Below are positions 2,958-60,279 of a stretch of 64,000 nucleotides of DNA, piece by piece. The notes beneath the pieces were generated by a model that was given only the letters and a program-made list of their open reading frames with translations, did not search any database and was not told the DNA's origin. Numbering within the stretch: position 1 is the stretch's first letter; each line of letters opens with the position of its first letter. The DNA is taken from the UHGV virus genome UHGV-1488776; one strand, given 5' to 3'. This DNA is from a virus. The translations under genes were made by a program, and so were the position numbers.

Positions 2958-3134
2958 ATTAGTGTAATATCGCCTCAATGAATCGTGATTTATAGAGCGA
3001 TTTAGCTGTTAGCCGCGACAGGCGCGGCGGCAAGTATGGCGGGGTAGTGACTCCTTCCCCATCATGACGCCGAGTTGCCAGGTTGACCATACGCCTAAGT
3101 GGCAACACCGAAGTGCGTTACGAGCTTCCAGTTT

Positions 3135-39718: not shown

Positions 39719-39745
39719 GCCGCCGCTGGTGGCTTTTCTTTTTTG
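39719..39745 (+). terminator. rho-independent terminator-like hairpin
   Basis: GCCGCC-gct-GGTGGC followed by TTTTCTTTTTT, ending about 10 nt before the mat ATG. Confidence 0.45.
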
Positions 39746-39755
39746 TAGGGGCGCT

Positions 39756-40397
39756 ATGGATAAGAAAATATGCGTTGTTTCGATGAGCGTCGGCAAACCG
39801 GCGTCAATGACTGCTGCATGGATCAACAACGAGCTGATAATGGCTGAGCGGACCAGCTACCCTGAACGCCGCCGCGACATGGAACTCCAGCTGCTGCGCG
39901 AATTGCGAGAAAAAGAGGAAAAGGGTTTTATCGTGCTGGTGGAAGAGGAAAACAGCTTTATTACTGGTCGAGTTGGCCAGCGTGTAAGGTTGCGCGATCC
40001 CTTCATGAACGGCAGGCCGGTACTGATTGAAGCAATGCAGATTTACAAGGAGCTGGAACGCCAGAAAGCGATCAAGTTACCGCGCAAGGAATCCGGCAAA
40101 TACATCCTCCACCAAAGCATCTTCGATTCCGAACACGATAAAAAAGGCGATGAATTTTTCAACATCAACTGGAGCGAAATAACGACAGAGCATGTTCTGA
40201 CGTTACTATGTTGCTTTGCGACGGAATACAACAACGTTGCCAGCGCCGACTACATCAGGGCAATGGCTGGAGAAGTTGAAGCCCGCCAGGAACCATCGTT
40301 ACTAAGTCCACTTATTAACATAATTCTGGGTACCCAGACACTGGAACAAAAAAAAGTGCCGAAAGGGGTATTAACAGGCAAGCATAATTATTTCTAA
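39756..40397 (+). CDS. mat: hypothetical protein (P1 mat position)
   Basis: 213 aa from MDKKICVV; position after ref as in P1. Confidence 0.5.
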   Translation: MDKKICVVSMSVGKPASMTAAWINNELIMAERTSYPERRRDMELQLLRELREKEEKGFIVLVEEENSFITGRVGQRVRLRDPFMNGRPVLIEAMQIYKELERQKAIKLPRKESGKYILHQSIFDSEHDKKGDEFFNINWSEITTEHVLTLLCCFATEYNNVASADYIRAMAGEVEARQEPSLLSPLINIILGTQTLEQKKVPKGVLTGKHNYF

Positions 40398-40564
40398 TAA
40401 TTTATAGTGGGGACTTTTGATGGTGTAAAACCCCATGAATTATTATTTTTTAGTTTTTTGATTCTATTTTTTTTTGCATTACCCGTCATAAAAATGAGCT
40501 TGCTTACATAATAGAAAATTATTTTATCAACACTATTACAACAAACGATTATCACTGATAACAT

Positions 40565-40588
40565 GAGTCCTTTGAAAACAAAGGACTC
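40565..40588 (+). promoter_or_regulatory. perfect 10-bp hairpin abutting the GNAT start codon
   Basis: GAGTCCTTTG-aaaa-CAAAGGACTC, 8 nt upstream of the ATG at 40597. Confidence 0.4.
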
Positions 40589-40596
40589 ACCATACT

Positions 40597-41205
40597 ATGT
40601 CTAATACCTCGGCAAATGAAATTGTACCGCACTTACCGCTAATTTTCGAAAATGAAGCTAATGGGATTCTTCAGGATCTGGCCTATACTCCATCGCTTAT
40701 GGGGTTGATGATGTTCCCGACAGAAGAGGAGCTGAAAGCAGCGAGAAGCTACATAATTAACGTTTTTGAAGAGTGTTACCGAGCCGGTCATTTGCGCATT
40801 ATGGGCTTTACTAATGAAGAAAACTTGTTCGGATACGCCTTAATCTTCGGACATCCATCGGGAAATTTTCCGTTGTACTGTCATAAAATATATGTATATG
40901 AGCAATATCGTGGTAATGGACTTGGAAGTAATATACTGGCAGAAATACTTGCATTTCCAAATGAGGTCGCTTTGATTTGCCAGTCTGATTTGGTTCCTTT
41001 TTATGAATCAGCCGGAATGCACTTTAAAGGAAATTACACCACTCCATCAGTCGCCAATTTCAAAAAAACTCGCGGCATGTATGAGGGGCTTTGTTTGATG
41101 AGCACTGAAAAAAATGCAAACTCTAATGGTGTACCTATATTCATGCTGAACGATAACGATATTGATAACATCATACAGGCTATCGCATCATCGGCACCAC
41201 GATAA
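40597..41205 (+). CDS. GNAT-family N-acetyltransferase
   Basis: 202 aa; GNAT motif A YEQYRGNGLGSNIL and FYESAGMHF; AT-rich codon usage unlike flanking phage genes. Confidence 0.7.
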   Translation: MSNTSANEIVPHLPLIFENEANGILQDLAYTPSLMGLMMFPTEEELKAARSYIINVFEECYRAGHLRIMGFTNEENLFGYALIFGHPSGNFPLYCHKIYVYEQYRGNGLGSNILAEILAFPNEVALICQSDLVPFYESAGMHFKGNYTTPSVANFKKTRGMYEGLCLMSTEKNANSNGVPIFMLNDNDIDNIIQAIASSAPR

Positions 41206-41260
41206 TATTAATAATTCATCTCGCCGCAGGAACTACAAACCAGTTGATTGTTTGTGAAAC

Positions 41261-41278
41261 GCCCGGTGCAAACCGGGC
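41261..41278. terminator. GC-rich hairpin between convergent genes
   Basis: GCCCGGT-gcaa-ACCGGGC. Confidence 0.4.
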
Positions 41279-41287
41279 CAACAAAAC

Positions 41288-41536
41288 TCAATCAGCATTG
41301 AGAAGCAATGCATTATCTATGATGATCTGCTCCCATTCTTCGAATGCCCGGTCGCGGACGCCCTGGGGAACACTGTTTGTTTTGAAATCGACGACTGTAC
41401 GCCATTTCCCGTCCGGACGGTACATGCGCAGAGCTTTACTTCCCCCTTCCCTGCGCACCTCAACGTTATGCTTGTCAGCAAACTCTTGTAATGCTCGTAG
41501 CGTCCCATGCTTTACTGTGTAGTATCGCTTTTTCAA
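41288..41536 (-). CDS. small hypothetical protein at end of darB operon
   Basis: 82-aa ORF overlapping upstream stop; size and position fit my memory of P1 lxc (bof), unverified. Confidence 0.4.
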   Translation of the reverse strand: MKKRYYTVKHGTLRALQEFADKHNVEVRREGGSKALRMYRPDGKWRTVVDFKTNSVPQGVRDRAFEEWEQIIIDNALLLNAD

Positions 41537-41973
41537 GTTTTCTCTCCAGCCTGTGCCAAGGCTTCAACTTCCAAATCGTAAGACTCAAACTCATAGTCCT
41601 GGTCGTCAACTTCTTCAGGCACTGGCAGTAAATGCCAGGCTGAGTATATCTGACCATTATCAAAACGCTCCTGGCTGTAGAGCGTCGCGGCTATGAGTGT
41701 TAGCGCCGGGCGGTCATAACGGTAAATTTTGCGAACGTCACGGTCAACGAGACGACCGAAATTACCATAACCGCGCTCCAGTAATAATTTTTTAATTTCC
41801 GGCCAGTATGGACCATAGCTGCGGTACAGGCGGGGATTTTTCAGTAATCGCCCGCGTAGCCCTGACAGGAAGAAATCAACGTATTCGTCTTCTGTCTTTC
41901 CTAACAACGCTGTACGGAGTACCGCCTCAAGATATGTTTTATTCGGTTTTATTGTATCAGATAGTGTGGCCAT
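41533..41973 (-). CDS. hypothetical protein co-oriented downstream of darB
   Basis: 146-aa ORF 34 nt downstream of darB; P1 ulx/hrdC neighbourhood. Confidence 0.45.
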   Translation of the reverse strand: MATLSDTIKPNKTYLEAVLRTALLGKTEDEYVDFFLSGLRGRLLKNPRLYRSYGPYWPEIKKLLLERGYGNFGRLVDRDVRKIYRYDRPALTLIAATLYSQERFDNGQIYSAWHLLPVPEEVDDQDYEFESYDLEVEALAQAGEKT

Positions 41974-41982
41974 ATTATGCGA

Positions 41983-42000
41983 CGCCCGGCGAACCGGGCG
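41983..42000. other. GC-rich hairpin in darB 3' intergenic gap
   Basis: CGCCCGG-cgaa-CCGGGCG, same motif as the hairpin at 41261. Confidence 0.35.
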
Positions 42001-42006
42001 CTCCTG

Positions 42007-45000
42007 TTATGCGTATTGTTGGATGACGGCCAGAACGTCCGCCACGTTGTGTTTTGTCTCGATAATCCACCAGTTACCTGGGAAGTCGCTGTTCTTCGCC
42101 TTCGCTGGCAACCAGCGAGCGCCGAATTTCGCCTTGATTGCGTCTTTCGCACGGAAAAGAACCCCTTTCATGCCGGAGGCTTCCTGAAGCCCAAATACCT
42201 CGCCAGCGGCGAATTTTGGTGCGTACATCATCTTCAGGTCGGCGGTGGATACGCGATAATTCAGACCAAGAGACTGAGCTATGCTGGTGGCATCACCCTG
42301 TATTGATGATAACTCTTCTTGTTTCTCGTTTCTGGCAGCAATTTCTTCCTCCGTGATGTTGCCAAGGGCCAGGTTTATCCGATCAGCGTCTGCCTGTTTC
42401 TCTTCATCGGTGCGCCCGGCAAGTACCGTGTTAATTCTGTGCAATATCTCCACATGATTCTTGCGCATGCTGAGCAATTCCGGCGTAACCTCGTTAAGGT
42501 CCACCAGCCCAAGGATGGCAAGGTCGGTAAACATTGATACCAGGTTGTAGGTCATGCGATAGCTGAGTTGCCCATAGGCTGATGGCAACTGCACCGCATC
42601 CATTTTATAGGCATCCATAAATTTAGAGCCGTCGTTTACGACATCCGCAATTGCCGGTGTGATTTTCCCTGTGGTGGCGGCCTCCCTGATTGCTGTTACC
42701 CACGATTGAGTCAGCGCGGCGACTGCATGATTCAGATTGGCTTTCCGTTCTGCTGCAATGCGCGCGCTTGCTGCGTCCATTGTCTGCTTGATCTCGTCTT
42801 TATTGCTGTAAATGCCAATGGTGCCAAACTGTGCTGTGGTGATCTCATAATCTGACGCCCGGAACTCATTGGTACCGAAAATGGCATTGGTGACTTCAAG
42901 TTCAGAATCCCCGTTACGAGTAGCCCCCTGGCTTGTTTTTTCCGGCATTCTGGCGATCGCATCCGCTATTTTCTCCTGAATTGCTTCAGGGGATAGCGTA
43001 TCTCCGTATGACGCGATTACATCGCCATAATTGGAGCCAAACAGTTCAACCAGGAATGTTTCTGCCGAACGGATCTGGCGGTTATTCCCTTCCGACATCA
43101 TACCAAGCACCCATTTTGCAATTGACGACTTCAGCGCGCTGTCACGGCGATCCGGGTAAACCGCATGCTTCAGTGGGTCCGTATAGGTACCAACAAAATC
43201 AATGCTATAGCCTGACTCTGTAGTCTGAACGCCGTACGAGTCAGTTATTTTGATCATGCCGCGCTGCTGGAAACGGTAGAAATCGTCACAGGAAATGATG
43301 TCGTTAATCCCGGCGATGGAGACGCCACCACTGATTTTCTGCATAACAGCATCTTCATCGGGAGTTACATCCACCTGTTTATCCAGCGTCTTCACATCCC
43401 AGTTACCCGATTTGGTGCCTTTGAAGGTAAAGATGATCTCCACGTCTGCGCGCTGGCTGTCGAAGTCCAGCGACTTAATGCGAACGATATCACCGGCATA
43501 ATCGTAGTATTGGCCTACACGCCATGAGCGATCGCCGATAACAAGGAACTCACTCGCATGGTTTACCAGGTCAGGATCAACATCCAGAATGCCTTTATTT
43601 AATGCATCCTCCACCAGCGGGCGCAGGCGTTTGATATCCGTCGCGGCCTTCTGAGTACGGTTCAATAATTTCTCATAGCGGGAGATGGCTTGAGAGATAT
43701 TAGCCTTGCGCTGAATGGCGCTTTTCAACGACGCGCGATACTGTGCTAACAACATACGGTCTGTGTGATGGACACTCCCCCAGCGTGCCTTCCAGTCTGC
43801 GTTATCCGCTGCCTTGGCCATTGCCGCCTGTTTGAATTTAGCTACCTCGGCGGTGGTCTTTTCAAGTTCCGCTTTGCTTCGCTCCAATTCAGCGGTAAGT
43901 ACCTCCACATCCTCACCAGCTGCGTGCTGCGCCTTGATGTAGTTCTGAAGGTCGATAGTAGCCTGTTCTTTCTGGCGAGCGCGTTTCGCAGCTTTCGCCT
44001 TATCCATTTGAACCTGCATCATTGCCAGACGTTCGCCGTCATCCTTCGCGGTATACATCTGCATTTCGATCATATCGTTGGCGTCGGCGTTCTCCATTTC
44101 TGACTTATCTGAACGGAGGATATCGGAGATCCAGCCTGCTTTACGCTTCAGCGTCTTCAGTCGGTATTCATCGAAAGACCCCTTGCCGCAGTAGTAGTGA
44201 ACGCGAACGCTTGCACGGTTGGAGCCAACTCGGGCACCGCGACCGTTTCGTTGCGCAATACTGGCTGGAGTCCATGGCAACGTCAGATGATGGATGTCAG
44301 TCGTTCCTCGATGCAGGTTGATACCCACCTCTGCCTTTTTGTTGCAGATGATGATCGGAGTCCGGCCCTCCTGGAAGTCGGCTGCAATCTTTTCCAGACC
44401 GCCCAACGACATTTCATTTTGCTGCGCGATATAGGCGTCATACAGAGCCATTTGCTCGTTGTATTTCGCTATCTGTGCATCTGTTGGTTCATCCGGTAAC
44501 TCTTTCGGCGGTTTAACCGCTTTCAGTTTCTTACCGGTTTTACCTGCCTCGGCAACCGTCTGAGCATTCAGTATCCCCACCTTTGAAGGTTCAAGGTTAA
44601 GAGCATTGCAGATAATGCGCTTGAGCTTCTGGTGCTGCGTTTTTTCATCGGTGAAGATGATTTGCTTACCTTCCGGGAAAAACTCCTTCAGCGTGGCAAT
44701 CAGCTTCGCGTATTTGGGCGTAACGGGGTGAGTTACGGTCTGTTCGTCAATGCCAAACCTGGCCAGGCGCTTATTCACTTCCTGCTCGAACGCTTCCGGA
44801 ACCTGCAACTGAATAAACTCGCCCTTATCTATCAGGGAGTATTGCGATTGCTGCGTGATTGAATCATCACTGTCGTCGTCTTCGCTGGTGGCTTGTTTAG
44901 GCAAACTGTCCGCCAGCTGCTGCACCGCATCGGCGTACTCCGGCAGGAAACGATAGGTGATCCGGCGATAGTACAGGTCCATGTCAGTACATACGCGGTC

Positions 45001-48000
45001 CATATCCCTGATTATTGAGAAGATCGGACGGGCTTTCTCGTGCTCAATCACGCCGTCTTCATTGACCGAGGTCGTTACGCCATTGTTGGCTTTGGCCGCC
45101 GCTTCCGCCTGCTGACGCAATTCTTCATACGCCGCCAGTTGTTCTTCAGTAAGTGGTGCATCCTGCTGGTGTTCGTCCAGCTCCGGGATCTCCACGGTAT
45201 CCTTAACGTCTTCCGCCGTTTTAAGCGTTACCCAGCGATGGAATATACCGCGCAGCGCATCAAGGTTTTCAAAGCCCACCAGCGCCATTTTTTCTTCAAC
45301 TTCACCGCTAATTTTCTGTACCGTTTCCAGCCTGGTCTTGCCGAAGAATTTAACGAAGTCATCAGGACCGTAGATCCCCATGTTCTGCCAGTACTCCTTC
45401 GGCAGAACATGAGAAAGCATGTTGTATGCATCGATCGGGGTGTTAACGACTGGCGTTGCAGTCAGGAGAACCGGCCCGCGCCCACCATTCTTTTTCATCA
45501 GGTACGCGTTTTTAATTGCCATATCTCGCGCCGATTGCGCCACCGCGCTGGTGGGCAGATAGGCCAGTTGTGACGCTTCGCGACCATTTTTATAGCTATT
45601 GCGGTAGTTGTGACCTTCGTCAGCGATCACACTATCGAAGCCCATATCCTCAAAGTACGGATACTTCTCTGCTTTTTCGGTGCCGGTATCTGAATACTCC
45701 GACAATACCCGGCGACGCGCGGCCTCTTTGCGGTGGGAGTCGGAGTCCATTGCGCTGGCTACGCGTCCGGCGGCAACGAAGTCATAAAGCATATCCTGTG
45801 CATGCTCATCTACGGTGTCATCACGTAGCGGAATGCGGGCGTATTGTTCTTTGGTAAACACGACTGCACGGTAATTTGAGTGCGGGATCGCGTTCATCCG
45901 CGCCGTGATAGTGGCTTCATCTGCCAGCTTAAGAGCATCGCGCATAACTGGAGTGCCATCAGTACCAAGAACAGGTTTACCGTTCTCATCGAGCACCTGC
46001 ACCTGGCGAATCTGATCGCCATCCATCAGCACATCAAGACCGACGAACAGGTAGTTACTGAATGCCTCTTCACTCAGGAATTCTTTTGCTTCGTAATACC
46101 AGTTTTCCAGCACTGATTTAGGCACTACATACGCAGTACGGGTGGAGCGACCGTTCTCATAGTTGAACGCCTCAAGCGCCAGCGCGGTCGTGGTTTTACC
46201 CAGCCCGGTGCCGAAGCCCAGGATGCCGCGCCCATCTTCGGACAGTCGGCGCACCTCGCTATTCTGGTAATCAAATGGCTGGCGCTTACCGCTTAATCCC
46301 TTCAACCCAAGCGGATCGCCAGAGTGTTCATACGGGATATTGCTATTGAACACATCGTTGTATTTGGCAACCAGCTCATCGTAGCGATCGTGCGTCTTGA
46401 TCCACTTATTGAACTGGTCCTCAAGCAGTGCCATCTGCTCGCGGTAGCCGTTCGCCGTCGCGCTATCTTTGCCACCGATACGCGCACCATTGAGATACTT
46501 TTCCAGCTGTGCCGGGAACCCGGTCGCGTTTTCACCTGATTTACGGTCCCACTCGTAGCGAATCTCACCTGTTTCTTTATCCTTGCGCTGGACGACACCG
46601 TATCGGTGCCCGACGAACAGACCATCACCACCGTGATAGGTGTCAGAAACCATTTCGTCGCCTTCCAGCTGCACTGACTGCACATAGCGCAGATCCGGAT
46701 AGCCGTTTTCCTGCAAAAATTCCAGAATGACGGAACGGTCGAACCAACGGCTATTGAGCTTAAACCGGATATTCTCTGCTGGCGTCTTGATGCGCTTCTC
46801 TTCGATAGCTGCCAGCTGATTAAGGACGTTGTTCTTTACTGGACCGTCGGGGAGTGTGGCAAGGAATTCCTGTTTTGGTGCCACTATCTCGTTAATGTCG
46901 CCGCTGGTGGCGCGGGCGAACGGAAAAATCCCGCCATACGGTGAAACCGCAATGCCAGGGGTGCTGGCCAATAAATTAAGCAACTCGTCATCACTGGCTG
47001 GCAGTTCGCCGGTAAACGCAAGGCGGAAATCATCGAGCTGGATTGGATCGCGAGTGAGATCACTGTAGAGATAACGCAGGGTGTCCTGATAGCTGGTGGA
47101 GTCATAACTGGCGCTGGAATCATGCGTAACCAGTTTTCCTGTCAGCTCGTCAGAAATAGTGCCATCCAGCTTAATTGCACCACGGAAAGCAAACCAGGCG
47201 CGCGCACCGCTCCCCGATAATTTCGCTATCGGACCGCGACCGGGGTTACCAAAACGGTCAATCTCTGCCTGCAAACGGGATACCAGAGAAAGGCGCTGCT
47301 GTTCGATTTGTTCAGCACTATGCCCGGCGGCCTTCATGTCCTGATATTCAATTAACATCCGGCCAATCATCGCCCCGCGATACAAGCGTTCACGGTATTT
47401 TTCAGGCTGGCTGTTAATCCAGTCCACCAGCTGCACCATATCGTCGCTGATTGATGTGGTGTATTTATCGCGGACATTTGCCATCTGGGTAAATGTCATA
47501 CCGAGACGGCCTTCTGTTGTAGTCAGGTTACGCTGAAGAGCCTCCCAGCTGTCCGCGCCATAACTGGCAACATCAATCTTCAGCTCCTTCCCTGCATCAG
47601 ATTCAATCCAGCGACCACCAGCATATTTTTGCCATACGCCATTAATCAGGCGCATTTCCCCTTCATCAACAACGTCTGCGGTCGGTGACGGTTCAGCCAT
47701 ATTGAGCAAAGACCAGTCGATACGACTTTCGAAACGATGAATCAGCTTCGCTTTAAGAGCCTGGTTATCAATCTGCCCGTCGGCACGAACCTCAATACGC
47801 CCCTGGAATCCCTTCTCCTGGGTGCCATGAACAAACCGGCGACCGTCCTTTTCAAACCACTTGCCAGAAATAAACGTTGGCCAAAGCACATTTGCCGATT
47901 CGAGAGTGCTTTCATCCACCAGGGGGATTTTCTCAGCCATCTCTGCCGGATGTTTGCGCATCAGCACCACATCTACGACCGTACTGGTCCCGTTAGCGTC

Positions 48001-48774
48001 AAAAGTACCGGTAGGCAAGCGGTGGGCACCAAGAAATTCAGCTTTCCGTGATAGGCGCAGGCGTAACCGCTTCATGTTTGAACCTGAAACAATGGACGGC
48101 GGCACAATCACGCACATGAATCCGCCTGGCTTTATCTTGTCCAGCATGCGGAGCATGAAGTAAGAACCCATGTCCGTTTCTTCTGCGTAAGGCTTATCGA
48201 TGTTGCGTGTGTTATCACGACCACCGAACGGAACGTTACCCACAACATGGTCGAATGAATCGTTAGGCGTGCTTACAGCCAGTTGTTCGAACGGAGAAAT
48301 CTGTACGCTGTCTTCCGGGTGCAACAGCTGGTTTATACGACCGGAAACACTGCTGATCTCAGTCGCGGTCATCACCGTACCAACCGGTTTTGTCTCATTA
48401 AAAACGCCGGTTCCCGCCGATGGTTCCAGAGTGTTACCTACGTCCGCGCCGTAGAGCTTCATGATCTCCCAGACACCTTCAGCGATCGGCTTTGGTGTGT
48501 AATATTCGGAGACGGACCCGCCAATGCCGCCTTCGCCGGTGTACCCAGCCAGGATCTGGCGCTGTTCATCTGTCAGTGTCGCGCCGTCCACCAGCGAATT
48601 AAGCAAATCTATCGCCTTCTGATTCGCCTCCCGGCGTAGTCGGTCATAGCTTTTGCCTTCCACCTTTTCCACGCCGTATCTAATCGGCGCTCGGTGAGAT
48701 GTTATTGCCCTAATGTATTTCAATATTTCGCTGACACTTGAACAGCGAAACACCCCCATAGATAGCTTGTTCAT
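42007..48774 (-). CDS. darB: DarB-like methyltransferase-helicase (defence against restriction)
   Basis: 2255 aa; N-terminal N6-MTase motifs (EPSAGTGVF, GNVPFGG); SF2 helicase motifs GFGTGLGKTTTA and VIADEGHNYRN; length matches P1 DarB as I recall. Confidence 0.85.
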   Translation of the reverse strand: MNKLSMGVFRCSSVSEILKYIRAITSHRAPIRYGVEKVEGKSYDRLRREANQKAIDLLNSLVDGATLTDEQRQILAGYTGEGGIGGSVSEYYTPKPIAEGVWEIMKLYGADVGNTLEPSAGTGVFNETKPVGTVMTATEISSVSGRINQLLHPEDSVQISPFEQLAVSTPNDSFDHVVGNVPFGGRDNTRNIDKPYAEETDMGSYFMLRMLDKIKPGGFMCVIVPPSIVSGSNMKRLRLRLSRKAEFLGAHRLPTGTFDANGTSTVVDVVLMRKHPAEMAEKIPLVDESTLESANVLWPTFISGKWFEKDGRRFVHGTQEKGFQGRIEVRADGQIDNQALKAKLIHRFESRIDWSLLNMAEPSPTADVVDEGEMRLINGVWQKYAGGRWIESDAGKELKIDVASYGADSWEALQRNLTTTEGRLGMTFTQMANVRDKYTTSISDDMVQLVDWINSQPEKYRERLYRGAMIGRMLIEYQDMKAAGHSAEQIEQQRLSLVSRLQAEIDRFGNPGRGPIAKLSGSGARAWFAFRGAIKLDGTISDELTGKLVTHDSSASYDSTSYQDTLRYLYSDLTRDPIQLDDFRLAFTGELPASDDELLNLLASTPGIAVSPYGGIFPFARATSGDINEIVAPKQEFLATLPDGPVKNNVLNQLAAIEEKRIKTPAENIRFKLNSRWFDRSVILEFLQENGYPDLRYVQSVQLEGDEMVSDTYHGGDGLFVGHRYGVVQRKDKETGEIRYEWDRKSGENATGFPAQLEKYLNGARIGGKDSATANGYREQMALLEDQFNKWIKTHDRYDELVAKYNDVFNSNIPYEHSGDPLGLKGLSGKRQPFDYQNSEVRRLSEDGRGILGFGTGLGKTTTALALEAFNYENGRSTRTAYVVPKSVLENWYYEAKEFLSEEAFSNYLFVGLDVLMDGDQIRQVQVLDENGKPVLGTDGTPVMRDALKLADEATITARMNAIPHSNYRAVVFTKEQYARIPLRDDTVDEHAQDMLYDFVAAGRVASAMDSDSHRKEAARRRVLSEYSDTGTEKAEKYPYFEDMGFDSVIADEGHNYRNSYKNGREASQLAYLPTSAVAQSARDMAIKNAYLMKKNGGRGPVLLTATPVVNTPIDAYNMLSHVLPKEYWQNMGIYGPDDFVKFFGKTRLETVQKISGEVEEKMALVGFENLDALRGIFHRWVTLKTAEDVKDTVEIPELDEHQQDAPLTEEQLAAYEELRQQAEAAAKANNGVTTSVNEDGVIEHEKARPIFSIIRDMDRVCTDMDLYYRRITYRFLPEYADAVQQLADSLPKQATSEDDDSDDSITQQSQYSLIDKGEFIQLQVPEAFEQEVNKRLARFGIDEQTVTHPVTPKYAKLIATLKEFFPEGKQIIFTDEKTQHQKLKRIICNALNLEPSKVGILNAQTVAEAGKTGKKLKAVKPPKELPDEPTDAQIAKYNEQMALYDAYIAQQNEMSLGGLEKIAADFQEGRTPIIICNKKAEVGINLHRGTTDIHHLTLPWTPASIAQRNGRGARVGSNRASVRVHYYCGKGSFDEYRLKTLKRKAGWISDILRSDKSEMENADANDMIEMQMYTAKDDGERLAMMQVQMDKAKAAKRARQKEQATIDLQNYIKAQHAAGEDVEVLTAELERSKAELEKTTAEVAKFKQAAMAKAADNADWKARWGSVHHTDRMLLAQYRASLKSAIQRKANISQAISRYEKLLNRTQKAATDIKRLRPLVEDALNKGILDVDPDLVNHASEFLVIGDRSWRVGQYYDYAGDIVRIKSLDFDSQRADVEIIFTFKGTKSGNWDVKTLDKQVDVTPDEDAVMQKISGGVSIAGINDIISCDDFYRFQQRGMIKITDSYGVQTTESGYSIDFVGTYTDPLKHAVYPDRRDSALKSSIAKWVLGMMSEGNNRQIRSAETFLVELFGSNYGDVIASYGDTLSPEAIQEKIADAIARMPEKTSQGATRNGDSELEVTNAIFGTNEFRASDYEITTAQFGTIGIYSNKDEIKQTMDAASARIAAERKANLNHAVAALTQSWVTAIREAATTGKITPAIADVVNDGSKFMDAYKMDAVQLPSAYGQLSYRMTYNLVSMFTDLAILGLVDLNEVTPELLSMRKNHVEILHRINTVLAGRTDEEKQADADRINLALGNITEEEIAARNEKQEELSSIQGDATSIAQSLGLNYRVSTADLKMMYAPKFAAGEVFGLQEASGMKGVLFRAKDAIKAKFGARWLPAKAKNSDFPGNWWIIETKHNVADVLAVIQQYA

Positions 48775-48840
48775 TGGTAATCCTTAACAAGTGACTAGTG
48801 TTAAATTCCGTTCAAACACGATGCGAATTATTCTAATTAA

Positions 48841-51571
<2,731 letters not shown>

Positions 51572-54088: not shown

Positions 54089-54395
54089 AATATACGATCT
54101 GGTCTACATGATCACCAAAATCATCGTCGTCGTCCTCATCGCCACCATCTACTGCTGGCCAATCAACAAACCAGCCAGCGTAAAGATGCAGCGTTCGGAG
54201 AACATCACTTGCGGGAGCATCAAGGGTGTTAACGAATCCCATATAGCTATTGGGATTTGCTCCAGCTATGGCTTCAGCGATCATGTCCTCGGTAATGTCA
54301 CCGGAGATAATGCTTAAACGCCCGGAAACTTCTTCATTATCATCAAATTCGATAATGGCATCTCCGCCTAATGGCGCTGCGATTTTAATCTGCAT
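54087..54395 (-). CDS. acidic hypothetical protein, last gene of dar operon
   Basis: 102 aa, C-terminal DGGDEDDDDDFGD; overlaps upstream gene end. Confidence 0.45.
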   Translation of the reverse strand: MQIKIAAPLGGDAIIEFDDNEEVSGRLSIISGDITEDMIAEAIAGANPNSYMGFVNTLDAPASDVLRTLHLYAGWFVDWPAVDGGDEDDDDDFGDHVDQIVY

Positions 54396-57372
54396 TATTT
54401 AGCTCCTTTGCCACACCTAATAACAGTTCCAGCAATCCGTCACCATTCATCAGTGATGCGGCAGCGGCCTCTTTGTCATGATACAACTGAAGAGCCATAG
54501 AGAATACTTCCGTTGCTGACGTTTTGGAAATAGTCGGTGATTTCTGCCGAATTTTCCCGGAATTACTCACTGAGGCTGGCGGGTATACCTTCGCCATATA
54601 AATATTACTCAATCGAGATCTGAAGCACCATTCAGGCTTGCCACGCCCACCGATATTAACGAAAGATGGCTTATCCCCTTCAACATTGGCCTTCAGGAAT
54701 GACCGGGCTTTCTCTAACAAACCAGGGTTACTGTACTCAAGATGATGACCCAGCTCGTGCCACAGTGCACTTGCATTTTCATCGTTCAAATTGACAGCAA
54801 CAACACCATTAAGATTTGCATATGCCCTTCCCTGGTGGTGAACCACCTTTGTTAAGGTCGAAATTTTACCGCCGGTCAGGCGATAAATATCAGCAAGTTC
54901 CTTGCGCAGGTCTATCCCACCATTCTGTCCAGCGCGGGCTTCTTCCACTTCTTCCGTGATAAAAGAGTCGGCCCACTCAAGAGCTTTTTCTTCAGATACG
55001 GATGAGTTGGCGATCGCACTGTTCATGGCAGATAACACTTTCTCGTGGACCGAACCCATACTTCGCTGATTCATTTGCCAGCGTGTCTGCGGGTTATATG
55101 AGAATCGCTTAAGTAGTTGGTCAAGCTGCTCAAGTTCTTCTTCACTGACATACTTTTTAGCCTCACCAATAATGCCAGGGAGAATATTGCCGTTAGGATT
55201 AAACGCTCGCGAAAGGAAGAGTTTCAGCGCCCCCATGCCCTCCGATGCTTCAATATCACCAATAACCCGGTTAACAATGGCCGCACTCTTCGGATTAGCA
55301 TCCGCCAACGCTCTGGCTACGATTTGCAGGGACGATACGACCTCACGCTGCATATCCGTCCTGATCTCATCAATAAACTCTGGCGTTATGCCGTGCTCTT
55401 TAAGGATATCCCGGCCTTCCGCCGTTACCCCATCGATATCACCGACATGTTTATTAACACGACTTTGCAATGCCTTAAATGCCTTCAGAATTCCACGGGC
55501 ATCACCCGCTTTACTAACGGCCTTCCTGAATGCTGGCAAGAAGTCAGAGTTAACCTCATTTTGTTGATCGGCCCACTGAATGGAGGCTTCTTTCATCTCG
55601 TCCAGAGTCAGATCACCCAACGCGGTATGGTCTGTGAATATGAGCGACAACCTCTGAACCATTTCTGCCAATGGTGATGCCGAATGCGCCGCGCTAAGGA
55701 ATGCTTTCACCCTGGTTGGGCGAATGGAAAACCAGTCAATAGCTGGTGGCATATCTCCGTTTTTTATCGCCTGCGCTATCTCATCAAAGCCGTCGCGCCC
55801 AAGGGAGGATGCGTGATTTAACAATCCGCGAAGTAACGAATTGCTGATACCGAATAATCGGCACCATTTATTCACGTCGGCAACAGGCATTCGAACAAAA
55901 TGCGCAAGCACTTGTACAAGCTGTTCATCCTGGGGATCTGTACGGGAAAGCAGCCTGATCAGATGAATAATGTCTTTGATGCCGGATGCCCGATGTAATA
56001 GCAAGCTGGTATATGGAGCAACACCGTTGTAACTACCGCCGGAAACGGACTCGAAAAGACCGCCGGATATCCCTTGCATGCCTTCGTTTTCCAGTTCCTG
56101 AGACACCTGGCGAAGGATATCCTGTAACGACACATCACCACCGCCAAACATATCCCCCAGCGCCTGGCCCTGGTGCTGTAACTCATCATTGATACGTTGA
56201 GCCATCAATTTAAAGGCGGTGGCCATACGCTTCGCGCTACGGTTATTCGCGACGATGAACAACGCGAGAGCTTTCACTTCCGGGGCTGTTTCGCTGAACA
56301 TATCCCCCTGAGCAATAACATCGGTAATATGTTGGCCTGACTCCTTCGATTGCCTTACCAGGTCTACCGCATCTTTCAATGCCGCCAGCGCCTTTTTATC
56401 GAGACTATCCGCTGTCTCAATACCATCAACAATAGTTGTCACAGCCTGCTTGTGCGCTTCTCCTGATAAAGCCTGCATCTGGACAAAATCATTGGCTGCC
56501 GCATTAAGCGCCGTCAGAACATTACGCATATCCGGATCAGGTTCTTCTGCAACCATTCTTACCAAGCGCGCATCCTTATATGCCTTGGCAAAGATCGCGT
56601 TTTGTATACGGTCAACAAGTTGCCGTGTTGGTCGCCCATCTTCCGTTACAAGGCCAGCAGCCTGTGTGGCACCAACTTGCGTCATGAATCCGCGAATAAA
56701 CGCGTCATTACTGCGGCTAAGCAGATCTCCGCTTTCTGATGGGTTAAACAGCGCCATCATCGCCGGAGTTATGCTGTCGGCATCAACAAAAGCCTTTTCA
56801 CTGGCTGCCATTTCCTGGAGATCAGAAATATTTGAGTCCTTGGCAAACTGAACACGGTCAACCTTCGTTAACCGGCGGCGCACCAGTACCGGAGCCGTCA
56901 TTGATTCAACCTTTTCAGGTCGTATTCCGAATTCGGTCGCATGTTCAATCAGGTACTCCCGATACCGATCCGCATTACCGTCCTGATAGGCTTTAATGAT
57001 CCCCATGGTCCTCCCATTACCTGACTCAACGGCATTGTCCTCACCAATTATCGGCGCGCCATGGCTGGATAAACCGGAATCAGTAAGCTGAGCAGGCCGC
57101 AAATCTTTGGATATCTGGTTAACCTGAAGAAGGCTGGATGCGCGGGTCCGGTCGCGCGGTTGAAGTTCCTGGGGATAGTCAGGATTAATTTTCCCATCCA
57201 GAGTATTGGATACCAAAAGAGCTGAGGCATCGACGATATCAAACGCTGTTTTTACCTCGTCTCCCTTCGCTGTCACCACATACGAAACCCGCCCATAATC
57301 GGGCAGGTTCTTTAGCAGCTCGATCAGCGTTTCTATGCTGGTGGCCATTACCACCTGATCGCTTAAGCTCAT
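54385..57372 (-). CDS. ddrB: DdrB-like capsid antirestriction component with HExxH motif
   Basis: 995 aa; position after darA-ddrA; C-terminal ALWHELGHHLEY zincin-like motif. Confidence 0.6.
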   Translation of the reverse strand: MSLSDQVVMATSIETLIELLKNLPDYGRVSYVVTAKGDEVKTAFDIVDASALLVSNTLDGKINPDYPQELQPRDRTRASSLLQVNQISKDLRPAQLTDSGLSSHGAPIIGEDNAVESGNGRTMGIIKAYQDGNADRYREYLIEHATEFGIRPEKVESMTAPVLVRRRLTKVDRVQFAKDSNISDLQEMAASEKAFVDADSITPAMMALFNPSESGDLLSRSNDAFIRGFMTQVGATQAAGLVTEDGRPTRQLVDRIQNAIFAKAYKDARLVRMVAEEPDPDMRNVLTALNAAANDFVQMQALSGEAHKQAVTTIVDGIETADSLDKKALAALKDAVDLVRQSKESGQHITDVIAQGDMFSETAPEVKALALFIVANNRSAKRMATAFKLMAQRINDELQHQGQALGDMFGGGDVSLQDILRQVSQELENEGMQGISGGLFESVSGGSYNGVAPYTSLLLHRASGIKDIIHLIRLLSRTDPQDEQLVQVLAHFVRMPVADVNKWCRLFGISNSLLRGLLNHASSLGRDGFDEIAQAIKNGDMPPAIDWFSIRPTRVKAFLSAAHSASPLAEMVQRLSLIFTDHTALGDLTLDEMKEASIQWADQQNEVNSDFLPAFRKAVSKAGDARGILKAFKALQSRVNKHVGDIDGVTAEGRDILKEHGITPEFIDEIRTDMQREVVSSLQIVARALADANPKSAAIVNRVIGDIEASEGMGALKLFLSRAFNPNGNILPGIIGEAKKYVSEEELEQLDQLLKRFSYNPQTRWQMNQRSMGSVHEKVLSAMNSAIANSSVSEEKALEWADSFITEEVEEARAGQNGGIDLRKELADIYRLTGGKISTLTKVVHHQGRAYANLNGVVAVNLNDENASALWHELGHHLEYSNPGLLEKARSFLKANVEGDKPSFVNIGGRGKPEWCFRSRLSNIYMAKVYPPASVSNSGKIRQKSPTISKTSATEVFSMALQLYHDKEAAAASLMNGDGLLELLLGVAKELNNAD

Positions 57373-57384
57373 CCCTGTTACGCC

Positions 57385-57750
57385 TTATGCTGCCTCTTTA
57401 ATGTTGGCGGCTATCCATGCCGCCGTGTGCTGTTTAACCTGGTCCAGGTCGATGTATGTGCCAACATATTGATTCAAATCCTGCAAGGTACCGATAAATG
57501 CATCGGTGCTCTGATCGACGAATTTATCAGCCAGGAAATCAGCAACCAGTTTTGGCACACCATCATGTTCCGAAGGTTGTTTTTCCTCGCCACTACCACC
57601 GCCGGACGCGCCGTACCCCATCTGTTGCATGATCTGGTCAATTTCATCGCTGATATCCAGCAACTCCATACCACTCGCGGTAGCCGCTTTGGACATCAGA
57701 GCATCCAACTTATCGCTGAGATCCATTAACTCAATAGCTGATAGTGTCAT
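57385..57750 (-). CDS. ddrA: DdrA-like small acidic protein
   Basis: 121 aa; start overlaps darA stop. Confidence 0.5.
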   Translation of the reverse strand: MTLSAIELMDLSDKLDALMSKAATASGMELLDISDEIDQIMQQMGYGASGGGSGEEKQPSEHDGVPKLVADFLADKFVDQSTDAFIGTLQDLNQYVGTYIDLDQVKQHTAAWIAANIKEAA

Positions 57751-59666
57751 GCCGCTACCCCCGCTTTCTGGATTGCTACCAACAGATCAGCCAGGTGGCG
57801 AGCTGCGCCGTTAACCAGCTCTTCGTTTTCCTCAAAACGTCCGGCAGCCTGAAGGGCTGCAATCGCTTCCCGGACATTGCCCCGGGCGTTACGGATCTCC
57901 GCCATGTCAGTGCTTTGCATATCCATCACGTTATTGAGATATTCAATGGCTTTATTAGCCTCTGCATCTGCTTCGCTAACCGTTTCATCAGGCTGTGCCG
58001 GGGCCGGTTCTGGCTGAGTAATCTCACCGACTTCGGCCTGCAATGCATTGATCATGCTCTGCACCATTTTCTCGGTGCCAGCGCCCCCAGGAAACGCAAT
58101 ATTGGGGAAAGTTTTTTGAAACTGAGTTTTCAGCATTACGCAGAACTCGTCTGGTGAGCTGGTGGCCAGCTCCAGAGCTTTTTGTGCATATTTGCCAAAC
58201 GGACCATTAGTAAGTGTCTTCGCCAGGAAATCGAAAGAATCCTCGCGAGGCAATAACTTCAGGTCGTACTCACTCATTTGCTGATCAGAAAGCGGGGTAT
58301 CGTAAGTAGCAATGCCGTAGCGTGCATATTCATAATACGGGTCACCTTCATCAGGGCGCGGCAGAATTGCTTTGTTACCTTCAGGTATTGCGCCAGGGGC
58401 CGCCGGACGCATTTGCAGGGCATATCGATATGCACCTACAGAGACTTCTGGTTCAGGCGAAGAGCTACCGGTATCCTCCGCTGGTTCAGGTTCGACGTTT
58501 TCCGGTTTATGTTCTTCTGGTTGGACCAGGTATTCCGATACATTACCCGCTTTATAGGCTTTAAACAGCTTGCCGATCGCATCTGCCATGTCCACACCCT
58601 GTATGGATTTAGCCTTGATCATGTATACGCTGCCATCCGGATCGGTTAACTGGATATACCCTTCGCCGTCCCCAATGAATTGCTTCATTGATGCACCATT
58701 ACTGAGCGTCGCTTCCCCGTCCATATGCATACGATTTTTGATACTGGCAAGGCGATCCGTCAGCGCGCGAGAGTGCCCACCAGTCATCCCCGCAGGGGCA
58801 ATGGTATCGCGCCCACCAGTGCGATTGAGCCGATCAATCTCCCCCTGCAAACGCTCATTCTCTTCATAAAGAGAATCCGCTTCCGATGCAACAGCGTTAA
58901 TTTTCTGCTCCAGATCTGCCTTCTGCCCTTCTACCGCTGCCACCTGATCCGCGAGGTCGCTCATGGCGTCCTCTTTCTGGTCACTGTCAGCCTGTAGTTG
59001 GGTTATTTCATCAACAAGGGCTTTTTTCTTCTTCTGCGCACGCTGGAATTTTGCCGAGTTTTTCTCTGCAAGGTTGGCAAGTTTCATGGTGACCTGCGCC
59101 AGCGTCATATCACGTCCACTCATCGGAGCAACGGTGTGAGTAACGTCTTTTTTATTCAGTAAGAACTGGAAAGCAACCAGCGTATCGCTATTGGTGATCC
59201 GGTTTTCCGCTGTCGGGCTATGAAACAGAATGCTGATAGTCTGACCATCACTGAGCGGAATAATGGCTGGCAGGACCGGCAGCCCGTTAACGTTACGTGC
59301 CCGGCCAATTTCAGCCCCGCCGATCGCGCGTGCACCGTTCTGGGCCACATCCCCCGTTTTATCACTCCCCGCAGAGATTCCGGTACCATTCAGCTTCTGG
59401 TTCAATGCCCGGACAAATGCCTGCATGGTCCGGTGTAACTGCAAACGAGTAGAACTAATCGCCTCCAGTAAATCCGTAGCACACCAGTGGATTGGCGTGT
59501 CATAGAAGAACGTAGCCTCGATTTCCTCCAGGGTGTTGGATTCCGTCATCAGATAGCGGTCCTCACCGGCCATTAATGCGCGATATTCATCATCAGTCAC
59601 TGGCGGGGGAAGCACGTCAAGCCCAGGCTTGATCGTCACCCCTTTATTGATATTGAACTGTTCCAT
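57747..59666 (-). CDS. darA: DarA-like internal head protein (defence against restriction)
   Basis: 639 aa; central coiled coil; shares KNSAKFQ segment with upstream Hdf-like protein. Confidence 0.65.
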   Translation of the reverse strand: MEQFNINKGVTIKPGLDVLPPPVTDDEYRALMAGEDRYLMTESNTLEEIEATFFYDTPIHWCATDLLEAISSTRLQLHRTMQAFVRALNQKLNGTGISAGSDKTGDVAQNGARAIGGAEIGRARNVNGLPVLPAIIPLSDGQTISILFHSPTAENRITNSDTLVAFQFLLNKKDVTHTVAPMSGRDMTLAQVTMKLANLAEKNSAKFQRAQKKKKALVDEITQLQADSDQKEDAMSDLADQVAAVEGQKADLEQKINAVASEADSLYEENERLQGEIDRLNRTGGRDTIAPAGMTGGHSRALTDRLASIKNRMHMDGEATLSNGASMKQFIGDGEGYIQLTDPDGSVYMIKAKSIQGVDMADAIGKLFKAYKAGNVSEYLVQPEEHKPENVEPEPAEDTGSSSPEPEVSVGAYRYALQMRPAAPGAIPEGNKAILPRPDEGDPYYEYARYGIATYDTPLSDQQMSEYDLKLLPREDSFDFLAKTLTNGPFGKYAQKALELATSSPDEFCVMLKTQFQKTFPNIAFPGGAGTEKMVQSMINALQAEVGEITQPEPAPAQPDETVSEADAEANKAIEYLNNVMDMQSTDMAEIRNARGNVREAIAALQAAGRFEENEELVNGAARHLADLLVAIQKAGVAA

Positions 59667-59667
59667 G

Positions 59668-60279
59668 TTAATTTCCTGCTTTCAGTTGCTTAAGACGGCG
59701 TTTGAGTTCGCCATTTCGGGCCTTTTCGTTATTGAGTCGGCCTGTCTCCTTATCCAGCTTCGCCCGCAAATCAGTGATCTGCTGTTGATTGAAAGACACC
59801 GAGTTCTGCGCTGATTTATAAGCGGCAACCACCTGAGCATTCCGCTGTTTTGCCTCTTGCAGGCGCTGAAAGTTGGATTTTACTGCCGGTTTCTTGTCTA
59901 CCGGATTGGCAACACGTTTCGCTTTGGCGATCAGTGATTTCTGGAATTTTGCGGAGTTTTTGCGGGCCGCTTGCCCCATGACGGTACCAAGCGTCTTGAT
60001 ATCCGGCGACTGAGCGTTAGGAATAGCTTTTCCATTCAGCCTCACAGACGATATATCGCCAGTATCGTTTACCTGTATGGCAAGAATTTGTCCGTCGTTA
60101 AGAACCAGCTTTGCGGTTTTAACTTTAACGCCATCTTTCGTTGTTGCGCGGTTGCTGGAGTCAACCTCAATTACCGTAACACCGGTTTTATTGATCGCCG
60201 CGATAAGGGATTTCAGCCCCTTTTCATTAACCTGGTCAAAATCGACCGTTGCATACTTATTTTTCGTCATCTGACACAT
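59668..60279 (-). CDS. hdf: Hdf-like protein (homologue of DarA fragment)
   Basis: 203 aa; KNSAKFQ and coiled-coil segment similar to DarA; directly upstream of darA. Confidence 0.55.
   Translation of the reverse strand: MCQMTKNKYATVDFDQVNEKGLKSLIAAINKTGVTVIEVDSSNRATTKDGVKVKTAKLVLNDGQILAIQVNDTGDISSVRLNGKAIPNAQSPDIKTLGTVMGQAARKNSAKFQKSLIAKAKRVANPVDKKPAVKSNFQRLQEAKQRNAQVVAAYKSAQNSVSFNQQQITDLRAKLDKETGRLNNEKARNGELKRRLKQLKAGN

Follow-up and report, generated by a model that had tools for sequence, protein, structure and literature searches.

Two hairpins beside the darB-ulx-lxc genes of a P1-like genome: a candidate split ribosome-binding site and the edge of a cargo site

The Dar system of phage P1 comprises at least six head proteins, of which Ulx, DarB and DdrB counter the type I restriction systems EcoB and EcoK (PMC12810830). 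P1 DarB is packaged into the capsid and ejected together with the DNA, and shields the incoming DNA from EcoK and EcoB type I restriction (PMC12810830, PMC9024508); Ulx is a head protein found in P1 virions with LC-MS/MS, which "aids DarB localization" to the capsid (PMC9024508); and Lxc, encoded next to Ulx, is a corepressor that raises the affinity of the C1 repressor for its operators and is thought to be constitutively expressed (PMC8546580). These roles of the three proteins are known for P1 only. In this work we have analyzed a stretch of 64,000 nucleotides from the virus genome UHGV-1488776, hereafter called the window, with the focus on positions 41,261 to 48,774. Its sequence identifies this region as the darB-ulx-lxc block belonging to a P1-type (Punavirus) plasmid prophage of Escherichia coli. 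It contains two GC-rich hairpins, one between darB and ulx and one after lxc, and very probably the whole can be explained as the known P1 block together with two hairpins of different kinds which do not form a functional pair. A possible precedent for the first hairpin is provided by the split ribosome-binding sites of phage T4, in which a folded hairpin shortens the distance between Shine-Dalgarno sequence and start codon from 22 to 5 nt in gene 38 and from 27 to 11 nt in gene 25, and in which stem mutations lower initiation (PMC3014915). The features of the region are as follows.

42007-48774, minus strand: darB, 2255 aa, ATG start, antirestriction protein with N6-adenine methyltransferase-like and SF2/SNF2-type helicase domains (open reading frame, Pfam, P1/P7 annotation)
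42001-42005, minus strand: AGGAG, Shine-Dalgarno sequence for ulx, 1 nt after the darB TAA and abutting the 5' side of hairpin 1 (sequence)
41983-42000, minus strand: hairpin 1, CGCCCGG-UUCG-CCGGGCG, proposed hairpin of a split ribosome-binding site (sequence and relatives)
41533-41973, minus strand: ulx (olxA in P7), 146 aa, ATG start (protein identity, phrog_1629)
41288-41536, minus strand: lxc (formerly bof), 82 aa, TTG start (protein identity, P1 annotation)
41261-41278, no strand assigned: hairpin 2, GCCCGGU-UUGC-ACCGGGC in the lxc sense, between the convergent lxc and acetyltransferase genes (sequence and relatives)

The darB-ulx-lxc block

Positions 41290-48900 align to phage P1 without gaps at 98% DNA identity, and identities of 98% or more over 7.6 kb were also found to P7, SJ46, RCS47, JL22 and other phages. 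The open reading frames (ORFs) match darB, ulx and lxc as annotated in P1 and P7 in length, order, spacing, overlaps and start codons, and the region agreed with the P1 block in every sequence feature tested. The surroundings of lxc (1.1 kb) are 100% identical to several E. coli plasmids of ~95 kb; pacB, c1, cre, ref and mat lie upstream, with prt and pro beyond the other side of darB; the window contains 13 C1-operator matches where 0.32 would be expected; and the P1-annotated promoters PdarB, LPpro, P1lxc and P2lxc, as well as the Op(pro) operator of P7, are found in it with 0 mismatches. The genes are therefore already known as a textbook P1 module, and the plasmid in which they are met here is one among many P1-like ones of E. 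coli.

An initial annotation of the region, made from the sequence without database searches, had called the 2255-aa minus-strand protein DarB-like on account of its N6-adenine methyltransferase and SF2 helicase motifs. Pfam and the motifs agree with this description, and the protein is in fact the DarB orthologue of a P1-type element, being 98.8% identical to P1 DarB over the full 2255 aa and 98.6% identical to that of P7, with the same synteny as in P1 (divergent from prt and followed by ulx). The Pfam domains are N6_Mtase (residues 145-291), Eco57I, SNF2-rel_dom and ResIII (833-912), and Helicase_C (1455-1517), and the motifs are LEPSAGTGVF (motif I), NVPF (motif IV), GTGLGKTT (Walker A), DEGH, TATP and QRNGRGAR; searches of DarB with the strict patterns DPPY, GxxGKT and DExH gave no match, the variant motifs being seen on reading the sequence. 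Motif IV (residues 181-184) reads NVPF and not the canonical (D/N)PP(Y/F), and residues 180-185 (GNVPFG) lie outside the 27 substitutions that separate the DarB of the window from that of P1.

The same annotation had placed genes for 146 and 82 aa after darB on the same strand, the second overlapping the stop codon of the first, with coordinates that agree exactly with ours, and had suggested that they might be equivalents of the P1 genes ulx, hrdC or lxc, which it could not tell apart. The pairwise alignment with P1 Ulx and Lxc that it had proposed (98.6% and 100% identity) upholds this for ulx and lxc. Ulx is 100% identical to P7 OlxA and matches phrog_1629, "Ulx-like anti-restriction", with an E value of 4.5e-66; Lxc is 100% identical to the Lxc proteins of both P1 and P7, has the same TTG start and matches phrog_2160, and its TTG overlaps the TGA stop of ulx by 4 nt (TTGA). 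An assignment of either small gene as hrdC was ruled out; ulx and lxc account for both. There is no hrdC between darB and mod in P1 and none is annotated in the first 50 kb of the P1 record OP279344, no direct alignment to HrdC having been made. Searches of Ulx and Lxc against Pfam, NCBIfam and PDB sequences gave no match, and the tblastn matches of Ulx were confined to P1-like phages and D6. The contrary outcome considered by the initial annotation was that the small ORFs would lack homologues in P1-like elements and would not be expressed; instead, homologues are present in every P1-like element examined, Ulx is found in P1 virions (PMC9024508) and lxc mRNA has been observed by single-molecule fluorescence in situ hybridization (smFISH; PMC8546580).

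In the more distant relatives a gene of 69-95 aa directly follows ulx in all cases (locus L004, 8438-8698, which is D6 orf13; L008-L012; L093-L156). A BLASTP comparison of Lxc with the gene that follows ulx in D6 gave no match; profile-profile comparison indicated that the small gene after ulx in D6- and Pantoea-type elements is related to Lxc (probability 95.7%, E 9.8e-9, 73 columns), which argues that a C1-corepressor-like gene is syntenic with the antirestriction genes across the P1/D6 group. Throughout the loci examined, darB, ulx and the lxc-like gene always travel together.

Two side observations concern this part of the block. In the viral contigs L089 and L090 the ORF walk ended early inside ulx and no lxc ORF was placed, which may reflect a premature stop or frameshift in ulx. 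Sequences of 17 nt resembling the C1 operator (consensus ATTGCTCTAATAAATTT, 2-3 mismatches by eye) are located directly 3' of lxc in JK004 (L003, ~3075-3091), L092 and L007; at the position directly downstream of lxc the window has none.

The hairpin at the darB-ulx junction

The spacer between darB and ulx is 33 nt long; hairpin 1 begins 6 nt past the darB stop and leaves 9 nt between its 3' end and the ulx ATG, so that the junction mRNA reads TAA C AGGAG CGCCCGG-UUCG-CCGGGCG UCGCAUAAU AUG. The AGGAG is 27 nt from the ulx ATG in the linear sequence and 9 nt from it with the 18-nt hairpin folded. It is the only Shine-Dalgarno sequence of ulx, the spacer TCGCATAAT being without one. The hairpin has a folding energy of -17 to -18 kcal/mol (-18.1 kcal/mol, z -2.05) and is identical in P1 and P7, and the layout of Shine-Dalgarno sequence, GC hairpin and start codon occurs at this single site in the window. 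A search of positions 40300-42300 against Rfam gave no match at E<=1.

The conservation of this layout was addressed in ulx homologues from the annotated phages JK004 and D6, from one genome per species in Pantoea, Enterobacter and Citrobacter, and from viral contigs. The 156 sequences upstream of ulx yielded 41 distinct 50-nt leaders, which derive from Escherichia, Cronobacter, Pantoea, Enterobacter, Citrobacter and viral contigs and belong to Ulx proteins ~45-100% identical to the query of the window or of the D6/Pantoea type. In 39 of the 41 distinct leaders the darB stop is followed by GGAG, a GC stem of 6-8 bp with a loop of 3-5 nt and, after a further 5-9 nt or, in one clade, 14 nt, the ATG; the GGAG sits 0-2 nt 5' of the stem. 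The two exceptions are L116, where the match starts inside ulx, and L156 (IMGVR_UViG_2890906962_000004, upstream of 3001), which is the only ulx homologue without darB upstream and the only one without a GC hairpin; here the leader is rich in A and T, and AAGG stands ~11 nt ahead of the ATG. All 16 of the other representative loci checked have a DarB homologue upstream, with 30-77% identity in the last 1000 residues and an end point 30-41 nt ahead of the ATG. The stems of the relatives fall into ten types.

CGCCCGG/CCGGGCG
CGGCCCC/GGGGCCG
CGGCCC/GGGCCG
CGGCCTC/GAGGCCG
GGCCTGG/CCGGGCC
GGCCCAG/CTGGGCC
CTGCCCC/GGGGCAG
GCGCTCA/TGGGCGC
GCCCCC/GGGGGC
GCCGGGC/GCCCGGC

Across these ten types 69 of 70 positions are paired, as opposed to 3.5 of 7 when arms are swapped between types, and six of the seven stem pairs vary on both sides. 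In an alignment anchored on the loop 99.3% of the cells are paired (61.4% in shuffles; 33-58% in controls with slid partners), and the covariation score is 0.857 compared with 0.198 in shuffles, none of 500 shuffles reaching 0.857. A hairpin at this place is found in 39 of the 41 leaders and in 0.9% of composition-matched shuffled upstream sequences. The stems of the relatives are very stable (-15 to -21 kcal/mol) and their spacers are A-rich and mostly have no Shine-Dalgarno sequence of their own. Variation in the loops is free, with UUCG or GNRA tetraloops in many of them, and this speaks for a role that is purely structural.

Hairpin 1 shows the three sequence-level features of a split ribosome-binding site, i.e., a distant Shine-Dalgarno sequence, a bridging hairpin and compensatory changes, and from these sequence comparisons we lean towards the view that it acts as such a site and raises the initiation of ulx translation. 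Folding of the hairpin would bring the AGGAG to within 9 nt of the ulx AUG, and with the gap cut from 27 to 9 nt a ribosome could start at ulx either afresh or straight after darB. In the latter case the hairpin would be melted by a ribosome at the end of darB, which might restart at ulx once the hairpin had refolded, a model suggested by the Shine-Dalgarno sequence that lies directly after the darB stop; the amount of Ulx would then be tied to the amount of the DarB which it helps to package. We hold such a coupling of the ulx start to darB termination with less confidence than the ribosome-binding role itself. From the layout of Shine-Dalgarno sequence, hairpin and AUG one obtains a testable proposal for how the synthesis of Ulx might be linked to the giant DarB protein, and, if the split-site reading is true, a second phage family would join the few with documented split ribosome-binding sites.

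The hairpin after lxc and the lxc-mat cargo site

Hairpin 2 begins 9 nt past the lxc stop and is the core of a longer imperfect hairpin (41245-41295); on the minus strand the extended region folds with -19.4 kcal/mol (z -3.2), on the plus strand with -21.5 kcal/mol (z -4.6). A T-rich stretch precedes hairpin 2 on the lxc strand and none follows it. The hairpin is located outside the homology with P1 and P7: the alignment to P1 starts at 41290, the homology ending at the lxc stop codon, which itself differs (TGA here, TAA in P1), and P1 and P7 have only a degenerate GGCTG...CCGAGC at its position. For the comparison of relatives the 3' ends of lxc were taken by ORF-based extraction, an initial pattern having missed most loci. 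The sequences after lxc in 82 P1-close loci could be sorted into ~18 junction types without relationship to one another, and a hairpin of some kind is present in nearly all of these types. GCCCGG...CCGGGC was present within 50 nt of the lxc stop in 22 of these 82 loci, with several different flanks and six loops, TTTGCA, TCTATCG, CACTCGA, AATTA, TTAATA and CATCAA (found in L016, L020, L025, L032, L043, L057, L077, L079 and the window). One of these alleles, L043, consists of the left flank and loop of L032 joined to the right flank of L050.

Temperate phages and phage-plasmids have hotspots for accessory genes, among them defence genes, such as the hotspots of P2 and P4 and the res/mod locus of P1. 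The interval 40398-41287 between the convergent lxc and mat genes (in the relatives L013-L092 from ~3687 onward) is a compact cargo site of this sort, with hairpin 2 marking its boundary on the lxc side. In the window it measures 0.9 kb and has a GNAT acetyltransferase gene as its sole gene, where P1 has the type III res/mod genes. The acetyltransferase matches phrog_10454, a family of unknown function, and 19 of 684 matching plasmids contain it at 80% or more coverage.

39729-40397, plus strand: mat, conserved flank of the cargo site (homology and annotation)
40597-41205, plus strand: GNAT-family acetyltransferase, 202 aa, at the position of P1 res/mod and convergent with lxc (Pfam Acetyltransf_10 and Acetyltransf_1; plasmid annotations)

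The cargo found at the site in the window and in related loci was as follows.

GNAT acetyltransferase: window and L016 (the L016 allele is 85% identical)
RelA/SpoT-like: L032, L035
SIR2_2: L039, L064
PIN: L024
ORF6N/KilAC antirepressor: L077, L026
DUF2971: L022
deoxyribosyltransferase-like (below the Pfam cut-off): L020
AraC-type regulator: L056
P1 mod: L018

At the empty sites L043 and L050 the hairpin alone separates the stop codons of lxc and mat. As a tentative interpretation, for which we claim less than for that of hairpin 1, hairpin 2 may be the native hairpin of the convergent lxc/mat junction beside which cargo has been exchanged, in which case it would probably be a 3'-end or insulating structure. 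What speaks against this is the exact 6-bp stem, kept with unrelated loops and flanks, for which a simple terminator-like role accounts only in part, and the absence of a T-run after the hairpin on both strands. A stem that stays exact where the loops and the flanks on both sides vary from allele to allele, the hairpin standing alone between two stop codons in the empty sites, and cargo that starts at the 3' edge of the stem would instead fit a GCCCGG...CCGGGC hairpin next to lxc that served as the recognition or joining point for the exchange of accessory gene cassettes, mostly of the defence type, at the lxc-mat site of P1-like phage-plasmids. We consider such an exchange point very improbable; if it were real, the darB-ulx hairpin, which has the same stem in the P1 clade, could be a secondary site. 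A literature search found no description of a hairpin-bounded lxc-mat site. The site could be mined for defence and counter-defence genes of phage-plasmids, including the uncharacterised GNAT gene.

Alternative explanations and comparison with known systems

Several observations count against hairpin 1 as a split ribosome-binding site. The arms entering the pair counts were chosen for their pairing, which biases the percentage paired upward, so that the unbiased support is the recurrence of the hairpin at the same position. No consensus structure emerged from unguided alignment of the ulx leaders with MAFFT followed by RNAalifold, since the clades differ in stem and loop length and the 3' arms are misaligned; loop-anchored arms were used in its place. 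L156, moreover, has neither the hairpin nor darB upstream, and hairpin 1 could therefore serve darB, e.g., as a stabiliser of the 3' end of its mRNA, rather than ulx. REP (repetitive extragenic palindromic) hairpins between malE and malF are the model for an intercistronic stabiliser of this kind, and hairpin 1 might likewise be a stabiliser or processing barrier which guards the long darB message from 3' exonucleases, or a damper of ulx-lxc relative to darB. Its place just past the darB stop, its presence wherever darB precedes ulx and the great stability of its stem would all suit such a function, which nevertheless leaves unexplained why GGAG always lies 0-2 nt from the 5' arm and why the stem keeps a constant distance of 5-9 nt to the ATG, with a spacer that has no Shine-Dalgarno sequence of its own. 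We regard the stabiliser, the strongest of the alternatives, as a rather unlikely account of hairpin 1. The stabilising and the ribosome-binding roles are mutually compatible, and the L156 exception fits both.

The initial annotation had located hairpins at 41983-42000 after darB and at 41261-41278 after the last gene, both correctly to the base, and had called them near-identical. Their arms are indeed identical over 6 bp; their loops differ (CGAA and TGCAAA on the plus strand). The equivalence that it implied is not supported; of the two, hairpin 1 alone is part of the conserved P1 module. If they were nonetheless a matched pair, a single factor could bind at both, or they could delimit a ulx-lxc unit that is mobile or exchangeable. 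In favor of this, the pattern GCCCGG-N3-8-CCGGGC occurs in the window at these two sites only, as compared to a mean of 0.02 sites and never two (0 of 100) in dinucleotide shuffles, and the same stem recurs with unrelated loops after lxc in the 22 related loci; two such sites are more than chance alone would readily produce, even if the pattern itself was picked with the data in view, and to that extent the finding tells against two unconnected hairpins. P1 and P7, however, keep hairpin 1 unchanged with only the degenerate sequence at the position of hairpin 2; in D6-, Pantoea- and Citrobacter-type relatives the stem of hairpin 1 has become CGGCCCC, CGGCCC, GGCCCAG, etc., with no matching hairpin after the lxc-like gene; homology breaks at the lxc stop and never at hairpin 1; and the three genes are not found apart. 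The two hairpins are thus probably not a functional pair, the matched-pair explanation having in our estimation hardly any chance of being right, and the shared GCCCGG stem may be a coincidence among stems made of G and C only or a shared piece of local sequence. Nor do the hairpins look like intrinsic (Rho-independent) terminators of the darB and ulx-lxc transcripts. The GC-rich stems (7-8 bp, mostly G-C), the short loops, the positions just past stop codons and, for hairpin 2, the location between convergent genes are as expected of terminators, but no T-run follows either hairpin on either strand (flanks TCGCATAAT and GTTTCACAAAC on the minus strand, CTCCTGTTAT and CAACAAAACT on the plus strand), a terminator scan calls neither, the P1 record has no terminator annotated at either position, and the 3' flank of hairpin 1 is A-rich in the relatives. 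With no T-run and no call by the scan this explanation was rejected for both hairpins as very improbable.

Beyond the block itself, the window contains the other genes and control elements of the P1 arrangement listed below. Going by the P1 literature, Lxc would be expressed from its own promoters inside ulx.

41581-41609, minus strand: P1lxc, sigma-70 promoter within ulx (transferred from the P1 annotation, 0 mismatches)
41759-41787, minus strand: P2lxc, promoter within ulx (transferred from the P1 annotation, 0 mismatches)
41904-41930, minus strand: P3lxc, promoter within ulx (transferred from the P1 annotation, 3 mismatches)
48704-48720, plus strand: C1 operator-like 17-mer, the hypothetical Op(pro) of P7, within the 5' end of darB (P7 annotation)
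48830-48860, minus strand: PdarB, predicted sigma-70 promoter (transferred from the P1 annotation, 0 mismatches)
48850-50559, plus strand: prt, portal gene, 569-aa ORF, divergent from darB (ORF and P1 annotation)
54385-57372, minus strand: ddrB (ORF and P1 protein identity)
57385-57750, minus strand: ddrA (ORF and P1 protein identity)
57747-59666, minus strand: darA (ORF and P1 protein identity)
59668-60279, minus strand: hdf (ORF and P1 protein identity)

The DdrB, DdrA, DarA and Hdf proteins are 97.0-99.1% identical to those of P1, and all six Dar genes are present in the window. The hdf ORF has 203 aa here and 200 aa in the P1 record OP279344 (97% identity), a difference that may be one of start-codon choice alone.

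What is added here to a known module is modest: the conserved hairpin in the ulx leader and a cargo site with sharp bounds between lxc and mat. The P1 and P7 records have no feature annotated at either hairpin, and we found no published description of either in a search that did not include the P1 genome paper or the primary paper on the Dar system, for which reason priority is not claimed. Compared with the block of P1 and P7 (GenBank AF234172, AF503408), the region has the same gene order, strand and lengths, the same 33-nt spacer with its hairpin, the same TTGA overlap, the divergent prt and the promoters; it differs in having the GNAT gene in a 0.9-kb segment after lxc instead of type III res/mod, and a clean GCCCGG hairpin after lxc which has no counterpart in P1. 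Hairpin 1 resembles the sites of T4 genes 25 and 38 in that the Shine-Dalgarno sequence is too far from the AUG (27 nt here), in that a stable hairpin would restore the spacing, and in being intercistronic and kept across relatives. It has no sequence relationship to them, its stem is all G-C, of 7-8 bp and with a tetraloop, and its proposed function comes from conservation and covariation whereas the T4 sites have mutational and probing data. The lxc-mat site, in turn, is like the hotspots of the P2/P4 type in being a fixed site between conserved genes, here lxc and mat, with one or two unrelated cargo genes per isolate, many of them with defence-type domains (type III restriction-modification, SIR2, PIN, RelA/SpoT-like); unlike those hotspots, it is delimited towards lxc by a short hairpin, the 6-bp stem of which several alleles without other relationship have retained.

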